A stretch of DNA of 63,490 bases, filler included, from Collodictyon triciliatum (taxonomy: Eukaryota), in assembly GCA_043381765.1 (NCBI GenBank). It is 6 parts of 6 records of this genome, joined end to end, with 100 filler letters (N's around TTAATTAATTAA, not from the genome) between each part and the next. Parts side by side here need not be neighbours in the genome. Positions count along the whole stretch, not along the records: positions 1 to 18,536 come from JBHJMP010001362.1; 5 more parts are not named here. The stretch is one strand, 5' to 3'. The notes beneath the pieces are model-generated. The model made no database searches, was not told the DNA's origin, and saw nothing but the letters and a program-made list of their open reading frames with translations. The position numbers were made by a program, and so were the translations under genes. Positions 12,180-25,481 of this stretch are shown one piece after another; the stretch's first letter is position 1; every line of letters begins with the position of its first letter.

Positions 12180-15100
12180 TTACGATACTCCATACATCTC
12201 GACTCCGGATCTGTGCTCCTTCTTCGGCCTTGATTTTCGGCGGTGGCGGATTAGTAAGCAGGAAAGCGCAGCAATGAATAATCCGCCGCCGGTGGCCGGT
12301 GCGAACCATACGTGTTTCTCTTGTGTATCCTGTATGAAAATAAAAGCCAGAATATCGTAGCTGTAAGAGACTATGACTTGAGGAACATACAGTTTTTTTT
12401 TATTAAGGTCGTGTATGACTTTTCCTGTTATCTATTTACTTTGATATTAATATTTGATGAAATTTTGTAAAGCCCCGAATTCTACTACGATTTCAAAATT
12501 TAATGACACAGAAGAGACAAAATAGCGAGGATACCTCGAGATGGTAATTAAATAAATAAAGGAAAATACAAAATGGAGAAAAGCAAGGAAAGATCACGTT
12601 AAAAAAAAAAGAAATGTTTTGAAAATTGTGTTATGCAAAGTGTGTTCATTCGCGTGTCTGTCCGCACAAAAATATTACCGAGAGCCACTTTCCAACGTCT
12701 TTGAAAAACTTCGCAGCAGAATTAACACCTCCAGAACCAGAATCATCCGAACTAGAATCTTTGGACACAGAAACATTCTCAATATATGCAGTTCGGCCCT
12801 GATTTTGTGTGCATAAATATCGAGGTCAAATTAGCGTAATCACGAACGATTATATAATACTGGTAAACTATATTACTGCATTATTTTTTTTGTATGATTA
12901 TTGTAGAGTATTCAGCAAATAAAGTAAAATAAAAAAAGCCAGGGTTCCACAATATTACTGTGATGTATGTGAGCGAATGGGTTCTATATAAATGCATGAA
13001 TACATATATACAAGGAAAGAAAAGACGAAAGGTGACATATATATACTAGCAAATAGTAAAGAATGGGAGTTAAAATGTCTTATGCATTAGTAATTCATTC
13101 TTCCTTCCTTTCTTTTTTTTTTTTTTTTAGAAAAAAAGAAAAAAGTGAAAGTTACCGATGTATCAGTCAAGACTATTGTTGTGGTGGAACCAAGACCAGA
13201 AGATGGACTTTTCGGAATTACAAAACTGGCTTCAGAGTCACTTGTTGTCGAGAAATCTACTGTCTGACCGCACCACATAGAGATGGTGGAAAGCTTGAAA
13301 AAGTTTGAGCCTGTAGAGACAAAATAAGAAGCTGTGAGTATCCCGTCGAGTGGGTCGCCCACGGCACAATACCTCGGATGGTCACAGTAGAACCCACAAA
13401 TATGGAGCCGCTTGATGGTTCGATGGAGTCCACTTGAGGCCATGTTGTGTCCTGTGAATAGATGTGCAAACCGGGTCAATCAAAGGCCGGCAATAACAGG
13501 TTTCATTCCATCACATGATGAGTATGATTATGAGTATTGTTATCGGTATCTATTTATTTAATATGAACACATGCAAGGTAAAATACTTTTATGTGTATCC
13601 ATATCACGAGCAGATTGTTATTCGTGTCAAGAATTTCAAATTGCAGATCAAAAGAGAAGAAAGAAGGCAAAACAAAAATAATTCTGAAAATCGTATATAA
13701 TAGGGAGATAGGTAAATAAAATAATCATAATAACAGAGAAATGAAAACATACAACTGGAGCGCCGTCGCATATAGGCTCATCGGGACAAAGGAATCTACC
13801 CTCGAAACAGAGTCCTTCTACAACATCTTTGTTAAAACCAGAGAGATTTGTGCAATCATGGTACACCTATAATTGATGAGTAATCGTAATTGGTATAAAA
13901 ACAAAAATAAATAGATCAATAAATAAACTAGATCAAGAATAAATTAGCGGTGATATTTTCACATCTTAAGAATGAATGCACCTGAATTCAATAATCTACA
14001 AGGGAAAATATGAATTTTTAAACAATGCACTTTTTTTTTTAAGGATAATAAAAATTGAGTCACCACAGCAGAATTACCCCTGCAACTTTAACATGGACAC
14101 TATTTGGGCCTTTGCAAGCAGTTTGGTAACAGGCACCTGTTTCGCCAACAGGGCTTATTCCTGTACGCAAGACAGTTCGTAGAGTGCATCTAGAGCCTTG
14201 GCCGTATGATTCACCCAGATAAGTGATTCCGTCATTCACTGAACTGCATGTCTGAGGGTCGAATGCATCGAATAAAGACAATAAAATGGTTTACAGAAAC
14301 AAAAGTGAAGACTTTTTGAAATATTGGTACTAATATATATGTATATATATTAATAATCTCGCGTGTTCATTCATGGTAAAAAAATGGGTATTTAGTTATT
14401 TTCTTTCAAAAAAAAAAGGCGTACATCTGCATACTCGCAGGAACAAGTAGAAGTCCACATAGGGCAATTATCCGCAAAACTGTCATATCCTAAAAGTAAC
14501 AATAATTTTAATAATAATTACAATAATGGTGATAAAAATAATATATATAGTCAACATAAAATATTCTTCGTTCTGTAGTTGAGGATTAAGCTCAGCAGAA
14601 AGACTATAATTTAAAAGAACCAAACGTAACACAACATGGACAGAAAAAAAAGAAGGAAAAAGTATTTTGATGAATAGTAGATAAAGATGAGAGTAAAAAC
14701 AAAAAAAAAAAAGAAGCAGAAAAGAACCTCCGTATGTCGGATCCGGTCCTATGCGGTACTGTGAAGGAACATTGTAAGAGAGTTTGGAAAGAGAACACTG
14801 CGCCTTTTGCCTCTTATCGATAAAGCAGCTATTACCCGAGCCCGTACAACGATAATTATTGGGCCAAAGCGTCCCCCACTCATCGCAGCGACTCTGGACG
14901 AAGTTACAGCCTTGGCCTTGACCAAAGACAAAATCCGTGTCTGCAAAAGTCGGATTTGGGGAGTACCACAGAGTATCTGTAAGCATGGCCACAGTGAAGG
15001 AGGATACAACGGGGTGCTTTGAGAGCGTGGATGACATGATTTCATTTGGAAAGAGGCGCTTCTCCCAGTGAGAGCCGGCCGAGCCGGAACCTCCACTGTC

Positions 15101-16456
15101 TTCCAAAGGGACACCCACAAGCGAGCCACATCCGTAGAAGGTGGCTGCATGATTGCGCACGTTGTCTGAGCCGAGACTGGTAACCGTGTAGGCAGTGGCG
15201 TATTGTGTGCTGGGATAGGACATGGGCGTGTCCATGGACGCAATCACGCCGCTGCTGAAGCCAAGCACATGAATCATTTCGTGGGCCATGACATAGGCCA
15301 TCTGCCGCTCATATCCGCTGCCTTGCACGACAGAATCCAGAATGTGCAGCCCGACATTCATGAGCCCCATGATCGGCCGGCCTGTGGATCCGTCATACAC
15401 ACACGAGGCTGCATAGGCTAGGACGCCCGATGGGGTTGGACGCCCGCCCACAAGGATGACGAGATCCACGTTTTGTGGGCCCCTGTTTGTACGATATCGG
15501 TTGGGAATGGACATGCCGACACAGGAGGCCAGTGCAGTCTGAATGAGCGACTGCAGCGGCACTGAGACTAGCAGAGCGTCCTGGATAATTTCAGCAGCCA
15601 TGGGGAAGAGGCGGCTCTCCAGGAGAGAGACTTTGTTTGATGTCACAGAGTTTGAGCCGGTGCATTCTACTATTGCAGTGTTTCCTCCTGTTGTTACAAC
15701 GACTGAGCCTGTGGCTGTAATCGTGGGTGAGATGAGATGAGATGAGATGAGATGAATTGAGATGAGATGAGATGATAAGATATGATATGAGATGATATGA
15801 TATGATATGATATGAGATGAGATGAGATGAGATGAGATGAGATGAGATGAGATGAGATGAGATGAGATGAGATGAGATGAGATGAGATGAGATGAGATGA
15901 GATGAGATGAGATGAGATAACTGAGATAATGCTTTGGTTACATAGTACATCAACGAACCTGTGTAACAGGTGGATGGGTCGTAGTTTGTGGAAGTCAAAG
16001 GTGTAGTATCGAAGTAGATTCGCAGCTTTGAAGGCGTTGCTTTCTGAGATGGTTGAGTTCATAAACAGATCAGTCATTATACCTCAACACATCTGCATGG
16101 GCAGTAGAGGTTCGATTAAGGGTCTTGCATAAGTAGCTGAACAGTAAGATATAGAGGGTACAAAAACTGGTTATCAACAATCAAGAGTCAGAGCTCTTTC
16201 TGTGCCACAATCAGAGTATATTACAAATCATGCTGCAGACCTTTGCGGTCTGCGACTTTGCCCAGCGGGATCGAACAGAGGGATCGCCCTTTGGGAACTC
16301 CAAAGCCGAGTGTATGCAAGTGTGAGACAACTCTGTCGCGTTGGACACTCTCTTTTGCACGGGGTGCGCGATCATTGGGGAGGCCAGAGCCGTCGATGCG
16401 AGGCCCAAGAGGAAAACCCCCGCGAGATAAGTAGCCCACGCGCGAGTTACTTTCAT
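12180..16456 (-). CDS. Leishmanolysin/GP63-family (peptidase M8) zinc metalloprotease, multi-exon, predicted type I membrane protein
   Basis: Signal peptide (MKVTRAWATYLAGVFLLGLASTALA), pro-peptide cysteine switch HTCIH, GVLAYA..C..GRPIMG, zinc motif HEMIHVLGFS, LEDSGGSGSAGSHWEKR, Met-turn EIMS and Cys-rich C-terminal exons. The last exon encodes a hydrophobic segment plus basic tail and ends TAA at 12180-12182. Confidence 0.92.
15728..15918. repeat. (GAGAT)n microsatellite in a leishmanolysin intron
   Basis: Directly visible. Confidence 0.95.
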
Positions 16457-17044
16457 GCGACCAAGGCGCGTCTATCTTCCTTGGGTGATAAATGAATGAA
16501 TTAAACAATCAATCAATAAGGAAATAAATAAGCAAATCAGTAAATAACTCAGTATATAACTCAATAAATAAATAGAAACGAAAGACACAATAATATGTAC
16601 CAAAAAAACAAGAAAAGAAAAGAAAAGAAAAGAAAAGAAAAGAAAAGAAAAGAAAAGAAAAGAAAAGAAAAGATCAGGAAAAAGAAAAAGAAAAGAAAAA
16701 GAATAAGGCCGCTGGGCGAAGCGCCCGAACAGGAATCGATGTTGGGTTTGAGTTTTCCGTCGCTGGTTTTGATGATCCGAGAAAGAAAAAAAGACTAATT
16801 CAACGATGAAAAGAGGAAAAAAGTGGGAAACGCACTTGTCCATCCATATATGGTATGATTACACATGTTCTGATAAGTCCGGTTTGGCCTTCTGCCGGAA
16901 AGGATGTGTTCTGTAAGGCCTATGACGCACGAGTAGACAAACGACAGGAAGGGCATCAAAGACAAAACAGGAGTATGATTTTGGAAGAAGGATAAAGTGA
17001 GACACCAAGGCGCCGGATACACACCGCACGATATTTTGTCAACA

Positions 17045-17200
17045 ATTCCCCTTTAAATGTAATTTCATGCCACTTTACATTTGTAACTAGGAGTATACCA
17101 TCCTTCGATGGGTTAACCTGTTCTGCTAGTATCCAAGGTCTCCCCACTTTTTTCACAAAGATTGTGTAGTGGTGAAGGCTTCCAGGAAAGACCCGACAGC
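17045..17200 (-). ncRNA. Putative Fanzor omega-RNA scaffold / element right end
   Basis: Cluster of stems overlapping the ORF 3' end: 17185-17193 with 17137-17145 (9 bp including G-U), 17168-17172 with 17144-17148, 17162-17166 with 17154-17158, 17126-17130 with 17086-17090, CCAUC-GAAG-GAUGG (17098-17111), and an 8-bp stem 17075-17082 with 17055-17062. The position matches known TnpB/Fanzor omega-RNAs. Confidence 0.5.
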
Positions 17201-18536
17201 ATATTGTTTTTTAAAGAAAGATGTATGCTTATTTTGAAGGATTAAAAGAACTTTCTTGAGTATATTTTTAGCGCTGTTAAAGTCCCTTGTCAAGAATACA
17301 GTTTGCTTGCTTTCTGAGCGATTGCATTCTTTACATATGAGACATATATACAGCTTTTTTGAATTACCTTTCAGTTTCATATACCCAGTTCTTTTTCGCA
17401 GTTGCAGCACATCTTGGAGGTTCTAAATTCATCTACATTAACTGTTTCAAAACGTTTGGATAGTATTTTTCGTAATCCTCTTCCGATTGTTGGCATAAAA
17501 TGTTTCATCTGACATTTTCTGCTCCAGTCTCCATACGCCAGTACAACGTCCTTGCCAAATGTCTTTTCGATTCGGTCCATAAGCAACTGTTCGCTTCTTT
17601 TTGTATTAACATAGTGTCTCCGTTTCATCTTTCGAAAAGTCATTTGTTCATAAAATATGGATAATTCTACCTGGCATCTTGATTTCATAGATACACATTT
17701 TCGAATTTTTTCATAATCGACCGTGCATGAATTATGTTTACTCGGTTTTGTCTCTAAATCGATTAAAGATATTCTTGATGTCTCAAACCGCTGATTCTCT
17801 TCAAAAGTCATGCGACCAAAAGAAACAGCACTTTGTAAACCTGTTGCCATATATATATCCGTGAAGCATCGTACTTTTCTTTTTTTCTTGCAAGAGTATT
17901 TTGTGATTTTTAAGATATTTGCTGTCATGTCTTGTTTGGTGTGCCGTGTAACGGAACTTCTTACCTGTCTCATCCACCATGTAAACAAAATTAAACTTGC
18001 CTGCATCAATCCAACTATTTTTTTTTTGTCGCTAATAAAGATAACTGCTCTTCGGAAAGTTCATCTATATATACATATTCTTGGATTTTTGTTTATATTT
18101 GATTCTTGAATTTGAAATGCGTTTCTTTTCAAACAATAATGACACCACCAAGCCTTCTGTTTGTATCGTGTATTTAAAATTGTAGTCTGATGAAAGACCC
18201 TTTTCTTCATTTCAAAGAACGTATCCCATAGTGTCTCTTTGTATCCTAATATAGTCTTCAGTAATAATGTTTTTCCAGATAATACTAATATATCTATCAA
18301 ACATGCAGCATCTAGAGTAATTTGACACGGTATATTGTTAGTTCTTATAGAGATTGGTTGAAACAGTTTGGTTCCAATGTCCTCAAAAATGCGATTCATG
18401 TAAATCAGACGTGGAATGTACTTATTTGGATTGACTTTGGCGTCATATTCTATATCTTTTACAATATCGCTGGGATGATACGATTCAGATGCATTGCAGC
18501 CCATTCTTCATATTTTCCGGTATTTCAAGATTCTTG
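17153..18536 (-). pseudogene. Fanzor1 (eukaryotic TnpB-like RNA-guided RuvC nuclease) relic, multiply frameshifted, 5' part lost in assembly gap
   Basis: Collinear motifs across shifted frames: KLFQPISIRTNNIPCQITLD; YNFKYTIQTEGLVVSLLF; YIDELSEEQL; RuvC-I IVG(I)DAGK (D 18005-18007) followed by FVYMVDETGKKFRYT; LAYGDWS; MKHFMPTIGRGLRKIL; RuvC-II VDEFRTSKMCCNC (E 17428-17430); zinc finger CKEC; RuvC-III TRDFNSAKNI (D 17282-17284). No introns seen. Confidence 0.88.
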
Positions 18537-23691: not shown

Positions 23692-25481
23692 TCAGTACTC
23701 AAAGTGCTCGTCGGAGGGCGCGTCCCAGGCGGGGTAACCGGAGGCGACCGAGGCGGGCGGGCGGGGATATGGCTCGCGGGTGGCGCTCGGGGCGATGCTC
23801 GGGGCGATGCTCGGGGCGTAGCTTTGGTGGCCGGAGGAGGGCGGGTGCGGGAGGTGGATGAGGGCAGGGGCAGGGGCGAAGGCGCGGGTGGTGGGCTGTG
23901 GCTGGGACAGGAACTGCAGCTGTGGCTGTGGCTGTGGCTGTGGCTGCGGCTGTGGCTGCGGCTGCGGCAGGAGCTGTGTGTGTGGCAGGGGATTGGCGGG
24001 GGCGGCAGCAAGGGCCGGGGGCAGGGGCGTGCGGATGCGGACGGTCTGGGCATCCCAGGCGGTGTCGGGCAGCTCGACGGTCTTCTCGTTGAACTCGACC
24101 AGCTTGGTCTCGACGGTGCGGGGCTGCATGACGACCTCGCGCAGGGTGACGGTGCGGGGCACAAAGACGGTCTCCTCGATCTCGACGGCGCGCTGGACCA
24201 TCTGCACAAAGGGCAGCTCGATCTCCTCCTCCACAAGGACGGTCTCGGGCACCTGGATCTGGCGCGGCACCAGGGTGGTGAGGGCCAGGTCCAGGGTGCG
24301 GGGCTGCAGCACAAGCTCGTCGACCTCGATGGTCTGGCGCAGGCGCGAGACGACGGGCACGTCCACGTCCTTGGTGACCAGGGCCGTCTCGCTGACGTCG
24401 TGCTCCCTGCGCACCATGCGCGTGACGTTGTCGGTCACCGTCTGCTTGCGCACCACCGTCTGCGCCTCCTGGATCACCTGCCGCTCCTGCGCAAGCACCG
24501 GCTCGCCCCGCTCGTTCAGCCGCGTCACGGGCACAAGCACCTCCCGCGCAACCTGCACCACCTCCGGCACGTCCACCGTCCGCGTCACCGCCACCGCCAC
24601 GGGCTCCTCCGTCACCCGCTTCCCCTGCGTCCGCACCACCTCCTGCACGCTCTTGCGCGTCGCCTGCGACACGTACCGCACAAACTCCTTCTCGCTCTTG
24701 GTCGCCACCGCCTCCTCCACCGTCACGCTGCGCGTCTCCTCCACCGGCTCCTCGATCGTCCGCGTCACCATCTTTGTCACGGGGCGCTTGATCTGTGTGC
24801 GGGGGGTGTCAGGTCAGGTCAGGTCAGGTCAGGTCATCTTGAAGGCAAGAATAAAAGAATAGCAATCATGTCATGTCAGGTCATCTTGAAGGCAAGAATA
24901 AAAGAATAGCAATCATGTCATGTCAGGTCATCTTGAAGGCAAGAATAAAAGAATAGCAATCATGTCATGTCAGGTCATCTTGAAGGCAAGAATAAAAGAA
25001 TAGCAATCATGTCATGTCAGGTCATCTTGAAGGCAAGAATAAAAGAATAGCAATCATGCCATGTCATGTCAGGTGCGCCCACCTTCTGCTTGACGTGCGT
25101 GATCACAGGCTCCTCGATGTACTCGATGCGCGTGCGCTTCTCCGGCACCTCGATGACCCGGGTCACGTTCACGACCACGGGGTACTCCACGCGGTTGCTG
25201 TACGTGCGCAACACAGGCTCCTGCTGCACAACCTCCGACGTCCCCGCAATCGGCACCTCGATCGTGTGCACCGTGTAGTGTGCTGGCTCCTCGCCCGCGC
25301 CCACGCTCGCCACAGCCACAGCCACAGGCGCCGCCCCGCTGCCCGCCCCGTACCCGCCCATGTTCATGCTCGTGCCTGTGCCTATGCCTATGCCTGCTGC
25401 CGACGACGACGACGCCGACGACGTTACCAGTGTGCGTGCGCCGCTGTACATGTATGGCGGTTGCGCCTCGTTCATCTGCAT
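23692..25481 (-). CDS. Articulin/alveolin/epiplasmin-like cortical cytoskeleton protein (V/E/P/R/T-rich repeats), 2 exons
   Basis: Exon 1 25481-25083 and exon 2 24792-23692 join in frame (VITHVKQK|IKRPVTK) across GT-AG intron 24793-25082. Repeated alternating Val/charged motifs: TIEVPI, RVEYPV, VIEVPE, TIEEPV, TVDVPE, EVLVPV, DVDVPV, QIQVPE. Gln/Pro-rich tail. Confidence 0.75.
24828..25062. repeat. 47-bp minisatellite x5 inside the articulin-like intron
   Basis: Unit GTCAGGTCATCTTGAAGGCAAGAATAAAAGAATAGCAATCATGTCAT starting at 24828, 24875, 24922, 24969 and 25016, preceded by (GTCAG)n. Confidence 0.95.

Follow-up and report, generated by a model that had tools for sequence, protein, structure and literature searches.

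A decayed Fanzor1 gene in Collodictyon triciliatum and the predicted omega-RNA scaffold at the right end of its probable Helitron carrier

A broken Fanzor1 gene of Collodictyon triciliatum runs on the minus strand into a stretch of mutually complementary segments, raising the question of where the mobile element that carried the gene ends and whether its last nucleotides could have served as an omega-RNA. The window, by which we mean the whole stretch of DNA analysed (63,490 nucleotides, filler included), contains the 3' part of this gene with its final stop codon at 17155–17153. The catalytic motifs DAG, DEFRTS (DEFRTSKMCCNC) and TRDFNS are all present in the window copy, but across three different frames, and stops and frameshifts interrupt it. 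These motifs and the family consensus contain the RuvC D-E-D triad, comprising D-phi-G, the E before a C4 zinc finger, and RD. The best match among solved structures was PpFz1 (E 5.6e-11), with SpuFz1 at E 2.9e-5, and identity to the intact relative P0001 was 63–64%. A Pfam and NCBIfam search with three Fanzor pieces gave no family match, and no intron was seen in the Fanzor1 gene of this family. On the same strand lies a leishmanolysin-like Peptidase_M8 gene (14486–16456, E 4e-46), whose introns are full of microsatellite and which has a signal-peptide-like start at 16456.

We consider it probable that a non-autonomous Helitron, now decayed, has its right end at positions 17087–17202, and that this Helitron carried Fanzor1 and was moved in trans by a RepHel of this genome (Table 1). 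Sequence comparisons established where the element ends, that its ends and backbone are held in common with a RepHel family, and that the putative RNA has homologues and covaries. The window locus itself is a relic, all scored copies being dead, and its RNA is predicted from sequence.

Table 1 Features at the right end of the Fanzor1-bearing element, in window positions.
Feature	Positions	Strand	Basis
Decayed Fanzor1 gene, 3' part	17153..18536	minus	frame analysis; contig end at 18536
Omega-RNA scaffold region (predicted), last ~116 nt of element	17087..17202	minus	family fold; homologous RNA in relatives
Stem-loop 1, within coding frame	17177..17200	minus	family fold; hairpin at same place in 3 folded relatives
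Stem-loop 2, A-rich bulge, contains stop codon	17141..17175	minus	cross-family covariation
ACUAG, terminal-helix inner strand; aligned with UUUAC of mariner-borne relatives	17126..17130	minus	
Subterminal hairpin (CCAATC-GAAA-GATTGG in the family), serving as Helitron terminator and third RNA stem	17097..17112	minus	
CTAG-3', element right end	17087..17090	minus	67 of 99 ends CTAG, 62 of 99 CTAG^T (caret: element boundary)
Host T of A^T target, predicted to close terminal helix	17086..17086	minus	pairing counts
Predicted guide, about UACAAAUGUAAAGUGG, host DNA	17070..17085	minus	boundary and published Fanzor1 RNAs (PMC10711439, PMC10432273)
AAAUGUAA/UUACAUUU hairpin, flanking DNA outside element	17055..17082	minus	end alignment

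The boundary was derived from the other copies in the genome. Exact matches to one 17-mer of the family occurred 138 times, compared to none for a control, indicating at least 138 copies, and a search for family copies gave 351 candidates in the genome, 40 of which were scored. Aligned copies remained alike through CCAATC-GAAA-GATT-GG-TATACYCCTT-CTAG and diverged beyond. We collected 99 distinct right ends with unrelated flanks, 32 of them placed by alignment alone; the first flanking base was T in 60 of 65 right flanks. In the window the true right end thereby falls between 17087 and 17086, after a hairpin, about 10 nt and CTAG. The preliminary description had expected paralogues to be conserved downstream of the open reading frame, which they are, with a sharp loss of identity after CTAG; the end at 17045–17050 that it proposed lies about 40 nt too far out. 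It put the guide about 600 bp upstream of the leishmanolysin ATG; this ATG is at 16456–16454, at a distance of 631 bp from the true end.

Full-length copies measure ~3.4–3.7 kb. Many are shortened on their 5' side, some merely by contig ends or gaps. Over their final 1.4 kb, 23 of 26 copies matched the consensus at 91–94% identity; the remaining three are shorter copies at ~80%, a value that includes flank. The family consensus frame retains all three catalytic motifs. No intact nuclease was found among 68 scored of the 1130 candidates obtained with P0001, and every match longer than ~180 codons contained stops. The window copy, as all scored copies, no longer encodes a nuclease. The earlier suggestion that a dead locus could still supply guide RNA in trans thus found no support, since none of the scored candidates is intact and the scaffold of the window copy is itself decayed.

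RepHel is encoded in this genome (Helitron_like_N, three matches; PIF1, seven matches) and was found on contigs C6377 and C1887, occurring in cis with Fanzor only as remnants. A poly-pyrimidine piece adjoins the RepHel remnant on C1887, and after it come a GTGC-GAA-GCAC-type hairpin, 9–11 nt and CTAG^T. This end yielded 22 matches, with T as first flanking base in 18 of 18 distinct flanks, and the start of the same family, TCTATACAATAAATTTG, yielded 37, of which 29 were exact (control, 1). Among 30 of its 5' contexts, four directly followed CTAG in a head-to-tail CTAG^TC arrangement and 19 of the 26 others had A at −1. The Fanzor copy L115 has this 17-nt start as well. Of 33 full-length Fanzor copies, 15 show ATAAATTTG with up to two mismatches immediately ahead of their 5' microsatellite, compared to 3 of 33 further upstream; the 5' end of the Fanzor family is recognisable in less than half of the full-length copies. 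Six copies (L035, L036, L039, L134, L137 and L153) have RepHel 5' DNA upstream of the Fanzor gene in the same orientation at 70–80% identity, and the Fanzor consensus shares the poly-pyrimidine piece preceding the RepHel terminator, the Fanzor module replacing that terminator.

These properties support a carrier of the canonical Helitron type, A^TC ... hairpin-CTAG^T, which would have been ~3.5 kb when complete. As in Helitron1 elements, a CTRR-3' end is followed by host T (CTAG^T in 62 ends), the CCAATC-GAAA-GATTGG hairpin precedes the end by ~10 nt, and RepHel occurs in a family with a common 5' end and backbone. Two features of Helitron2 elements of the CRe-1/2/3 type, asymmetric terminal inverted repeats and insertion after TTTT, were not seen, with no repeat between the ends and A at −1 in the RepHel sister family; the best local match between the two ends of L115, searched for a terminal inverted repeat (TIR), was just 4 nt. 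TIRs, a TA duplication and a DDE transposase, as expected for Tc1/mariner elements, were seen in relatives alone. Left flanks showed A at −1 alone, and no TAM was legible.

Loci L159 (G000:C6377:627-4208), L177 (C1887) and L187 (C2589:124-1348) belong to one RepHel Helitron family. It contains a frame of 1194 codons that is open (partly N), and its young non-autonomous members bear a ~10-nt minisatellite. Another abundant repeat, represented by L160:362-1172 and L161:2999-3516 at ~90% identity, has inserted into many Fanzor copies or next to them, among them L031, L092, L120, L146 and L155.

We compared the predicted fold of the window copy with that of the family, using shuffles as controls. 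All complementary stretches that had been named are present on the minus strand: GGUCUUUCC (17193–17185) pairs with GGGGAGACC (17145–17137), CCACU/AGUGG (17172–17168/17148–17144) surrounds CACAA/UUGUG, ACUAG/CUAGU (17130–17126/17090–17086) encloses CCAUC-GAAG-GAUGG (17111–17098), and AAAUGUAA (17082–17075) is complementary to UUACAUUU (17062–17055). They do not, however, all nest as proposed, as the first two stems collide at 17145–17144. Moreover, the 9-bp form of the first requires G17143, a base peculiar to this copy (T occupies the position in 82% of 62 copies), and the family fold places GGUCU in another hairpin, GGCUGUYGGG/CCUGGCAGCC (stem 1), which has 10–11 bp in the family and has lost two pairs in the window copy. 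A candidate GGUCU/AGACC pseudoknot was set aside, being in competition with stems 1 and 2. The stretch around the named stems did not stand out from its dinucleotide shuffles (z −0.28, 75 of 200 as good; z −0.58 for 17045–17200).

At the level of the family the picture was different: its consensus over the final 120 nt folded into three stems with z values of −4.3 to −5.4 and none of 300 shuffles as good. Sixteen upstream consensus windows ranged from −2.0 to +1.7 and the reverse strand reached −2.5, while 30 single copies averaged −2.3 and the window copy −0.2. Stem 2 of the consensus fold is UCACCACU/AGUGGUGA with inner CACAA/UUGUG. The consensus of long copies folds ACUAG/CUAGU around the GAAA hairpin, whereas that of alignment A1 forms two separate hairpins instead. 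The last stem doubles as the Helitron terminator, a point missed in the preliminary description; its loop in the 99 ends is GAAA in 36, inverted (TTTC or TTCC) in 12 and otherwise composed or degraded in 51. Within the family we detected no covariation (5 double changes compared to 6.8 in shuffles), which is what dead copies descended from a single ancestor should show. RNAalifold on 59 copies was weak and uninformative, and an Rfam search of the window region returned nothing meaningful, with a single chance match at E 1.1.

A search with window-frame residues 100–227 for longer proteins only gave 18 matches. The closest, P0001 (648 aa), was 70% identical over the searched residues and 43–48% identical to its aligned relatives, whose profile matches SpuFz1, PpFz1 and GtFz1 (E 5e-54 to 3e-40). 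Searches for loci with P0001 as sole query yielded none; an alignment of 15 of the 18 matches served to retrieve 79 viral and 80 metagenome loci. The family covariance model R1, which scored 114.8 bits on the window scaffold by construction, was run on 100 of these loci and matched five, each time where the Fanzor gene has its 3' end, with rough E-values of 0.0007–0.3 and three of the five matches near-identical. Of the 159 loci, 50 contained a core motif; 26 were left once near-duplicates had been discarded, and removal of L242, where the motif lies inside the gene, reduced these to 25 relatives. The nearest relatives with known context are Tc1/mariner-type TIR elements ending in TIR and TA; a left TIR was located in 14 of the 25, and a DDE_3 transposase was found in all three relatives tested. 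These Fanzor1-bearing TIR elements on giant-virus contigs (L212–L345) have a conserved RNA core, CAATCAGTTGATTTTAC, and end in GGTG-TA, the next base being A in 25 of 25.

Across families, stem 2 covaries. Five copies and 18 relatives gave 49 double changes compared to 16.8 ± 3.5 in shuffles, with none of 500 shuffles reaching this value; slid controls were lower, and kinship as well as hand trimming around a motif inflate the counts. The covariation proposed as a check on the scaffold is absent within the family but present for stem 2 between families. Together with the family fold, the homologous covarying RNA at the 3' end of intact relatives supports the original idea that an omega-RNA scaffold overlaps the end of the Fanzor frame.

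The terminal helix differs between the two groups. In the relatives, UUUAC after the linker pairs with G, TA and AA at the element end, all five pairs being formed in 21 of 25, and L300 shows a compensatory UUUGU/AUAAA combination. The aligned 5-mer in the Collodictyon family is ACUAG, which pairs with CUAG and the following U; in 37 ends that had not been chosen by motif, all five pairs were present in 22, four in six and three or fewer in nine. Three of the five pairs are thereby exchanged on both sides between the family and the mariner-borne relatives. A terminal helix that takes in invariant target base(s), as in known Fanzor1 RNAs, is thus predicted here from sequence. In a tree, the window copy grouped with a second copy from this genome and with P0001, inside a clade of mostly TIR-ended elements. 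We infer only tentatively that the Fanzor gene and its RNA passed from a Tc1/mariner-type TIR element to a Helitron, as the tree was quick, midpoint-rooted and without a one-clade test; elements outside that clade are also mostly TIR-ended.

According to our explanation, RepHel would have copied the element in trans, stopping at the hairpin-CTAG end. The last ~120 nt, transcribed with 15–20 nt of flank, would have given an omega-RNA consisting of two hairpins, a linker and the terminal helix ACUAG/CUAGU around a third hairpin, which may have guided the nuclease to the empty site. Gene and RNA would derive from a TIR element of the Tc1/mariner type; in the RNA, the Helitron terminator would have taken the place of the TIR half and the terminal helix would have been re-paired from UUUAC/GUA+AA to ACUAG/CUAG+U, so that the same 30 nt would be both DNA terminator and end of the RNA scaffold.

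The alternative that fares best takes the end as a DNA-level Helitron terminator beside fossil hairpins, with Fanzor as a read-through passenger that never worked through RNA within the Helitron. It is in keeping with the public runs, in whose contigs no such RNA is evident, the missing within-family covariation, the broken state of all scored copies and the inverted loop in 12 of the 99 ends, which points to a DNA hairpin; the ACUAG match, moreover, needs little luck, CTAG being self-complementary. We nevertheless regard this as quite unlikely, as the inner strand differs from that of the relatives at three of five homologous positions, each time matching the new end, while the consensus frame retains its three catalytic motifs and stems 1 and 2 were kept.

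The preferred reading, a Fanzor1-bearing Helitron moved by RepHel, also has to account for the insertion sites. Both the Fanzor family and the RepHel family have a 3' flank bias, T-N5-7-ATAAA, present in 33 of 65 Fanzor-family right flanks compared to 0–8 in control windows, with 13 ATAAA starts among 18 flanks of the RepHel sister family (L184–L205). The motif resembles the Helitron's own 5' end, TCTATACAATAAAT. An exact search for target duplications found none, and a loose search over 44 junctions gave a mean of 7.0 compared to 6.8. In a permutation test that compared each copy's own 3' flank with those of other copies, own-flank matches at the 5' junctions of 33 copies were enriched (score 147 compared to 124 ± 8.5, p 0.006; three copies dropped for missing flank), as they were among 26 5'-truncated copies (p 0.025). 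Scores of at least 9, the clear cases, occurred in 4 of 33 copies compared to 0.7% expected; in a post hoc test the own flank fitted the junction better than the 5' motif in 13 copies, worse in 15 and equally in 5. From this enrichment with its few clear cases, a signal coming only from permutation tests on anchored junctions, a minority of 5' junctions look like target duplications of ~11–14 nt, which departs from the absence of duplications expected for Helitron1.

Such duplications would also suit an unclassified, TIR-less, duplication-flanked Fanzor1 element like MCi-2 and MCi-5 of Mucor circinelloides, with the Helitron letters and RepHel pieces being incidental: own-flank matches of 11–14 nt are enriched here, and MCi-2 is described as having 11–12-bp target duplications of the pattern ATAATTNNNN(N) and no TIRs (in the section of PMC3627910 on these elements). 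This is very unlikely in our view, given that the 5' 17-mer, the layout of the ends (A^TC, CTAG^T), the flank bias and the backbone are all common to the RepHel family, and that variable target duplications are also reported, in part of the same source, for Fanzor-bearing Helitron2 elements (PMC3627910).

A further proposal extends the Helitron reading by making Fanzor a working part of transposition. Because the insertion sites resemble the left end of the element (T-N5-7-ATAAA), the guide of each copy would open with a mimic of that end; transcripts of circles or of tandem junctions (CTAG^TC) would bear the left end itself as guide, and the nuclease could introduce nicks or cuts at donor ends or in target strands, giving rise to 11–14-nt duplications and 5' truncations, neither of which canonical Helitrons have. 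We rate this as unlikely. If true, it would offer a testable reason for a transposon of the copy type to retain an RNA-guided nuclease; a part for Fanzor in the duplications of Chlamydomonas Helitron2 elements is raised as speculation in part of PMC10288648.

With the boundary at 17087, the guide of the window copy would start at 17087–17085 and read about UACAAAUGUAAAGUGG, its start being uncertain by 1–2 nt as the last two helix pairs use flank bases in the relatives. Published Fanzor1 RNAs likewise absorb the target duplication and extend ~15 nt beyond it, as reported in parts of PMC10711439 and PMC10432273. The preliminary arrangement, in which the element ends at 17045–17050, the AAAUGUAA hairpin belongs to the scaffold and UUGUUGACAAAAUAUCGUGC is the guide, is practically untenable after the end alignment: although two other loci (C9266 and C1304) carry this flank, the other 96 of 99 ends lack it, and the host DNA in common extends over 218 nt in C9266 and over only 82 nt in C1304. 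Consequently the hairpin is flank, and UUGUUGACAAAAUAUCGUGC, like the end itself, is misplaced by about 40 nt, since copy identity stops at CTAG^T. The predicted guide and UUGUUGACAAAAUAUCGUGC each matched only their own loci among the collected loci compared.

The two other loci with this flank differ in kind. L002 (G000:C9266), compared with window positions 16869–17500, occupies the same insertion site with a flank identity of 214 of 218 nt, but the two elements share just 89% identity across 1369 nt, close to the highest value for unrelated pairs; an assembly chimera, gene conversion or repeat-directed mutation may lie behind this mismatch. L003 (G000:C1304:13141-13222) holds the 82 nt of window flank 17001–17082 at 89% identity and is thus as diverged as the elements themselves, which fits an old 3' read-through beyond the terminator. 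A search for the empty site with 387 nt of flank gave three matches, every one filled. A public DNA contig was identical across 17022–17240 and may come from the source sample itself. In the public runs, shares were at most 0.30 and all data were contigs; two runs, which we guess to be RNA, had many diverged contigs over the element and none over the flank, with ends and strand not readable.

Several known systems share parts of this architecture. CRe-1, CRe-2 and CRe-3 (CrFNuc) of Chlamydomonas reinhardtii are likewise non-autonomous Helitrons with Fanzor1 whose 3' end is fixed while the 5' side is often truncated, and which have target duplications of varying length and structured 3' RNA, as described in parts of PMC3627910 and PMC10530073. 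According to the same parts they are Helitron2 elements with asymmetric inverted repeats, insertion after TTTT and an intron-bearing gene, whereas the Collodictyon family has Helitron1 ends (A^TC, hairpin-CTAG^T); CRe-1 copies are ~98% identical, in contrast to Collodictyon copies, which lie ~7% from their consensus and include none intact among those scored. The omega-RNAs of SpuFz1 and the SfAV Fanzor1 resemble the predicted RNA in their right-end scaffold, three-stem shape, invariant target base(s) within the scaffold and guide from ~15 nt of flank, these being predictions in Collodictyon. Their elements, in the parts of PMC10432273 and PMC10711439 concerned, end in TIRs with short target duplications, in contrast to the rolling-circle terminator and ~120-nt scaffold overlapping the reading frame found here.

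The mariner-borne, IS630-like elements with DDE_3 on giant-virus and metagenome contigs (L212–L345) belong to one protein clade with the Collodictyon family and have homologous stems 1 and 2, linker and terminal helix, but differ in their TIR and TA end, UUUAC/GUAAA helix, open Fanzor frames and DDE transposase (3 of 3 tested). Helraiser, a Helitron1 element, is similar in its 5'-TC start, which is clear in the RepHel sister family and partly so in the Fanzor family, and in its CTAG-3' terminus, a hairpin ~10–11 nt before the end, the A^T target, head-to-tail junctions and 3' read-through (parts of PMC4778049). It has no Fanzor, and Helitrons are said there to leave no target duplications; a further difference is the likeness, in the Collodictyon family, between the target's right half and the 5' end of the element. 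MCi-2 and MCi-5 share Fanzor1, the lack of TIRs, variable 5' regions and 11–12-bp duplications of an AT motif, but are unclassified, with Crypton or Harbinger pieces, and a link to RepHel is absent from that section of PMC3627910.

Fanzor1 in Helitron2 has already been published (parts of PMC3627910 and PMC10530073). A 2026 review treats Fanzor in Helitrons as an open point concerning the fate of the donor site and cites further Helitron cases in Repbase (parts of PMC13565253). Our literature search, covering sources other than Repbase entries and most subscription papers, found neither a TC/CTAG Helitron with Fanzor1 nor a re-paired terminal helix described. That Fanzor1 genes switch transposon superfamilies, and that their RNA absorbs bases of the end and the target, was already known; in the present case a putative hand-over can be viewed from both sides, with UUUAC/GUAAA in the mariner-borne relatives and ACUAG/CUAGU in the Helitron-borne family. 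The re-paired helix predicts the boundary between scaffold and guide, and one 30-nt stretch would unite a rolling-circle terminator with the end of an RNA. Elsewhere in the window, on the minus strand at 23692–24813, we noted a 373-aa frame rich in V/E/T/R repeats of V-P-V type, which may encode a protein resembling the cortical proteins articulin or epiplasmin.
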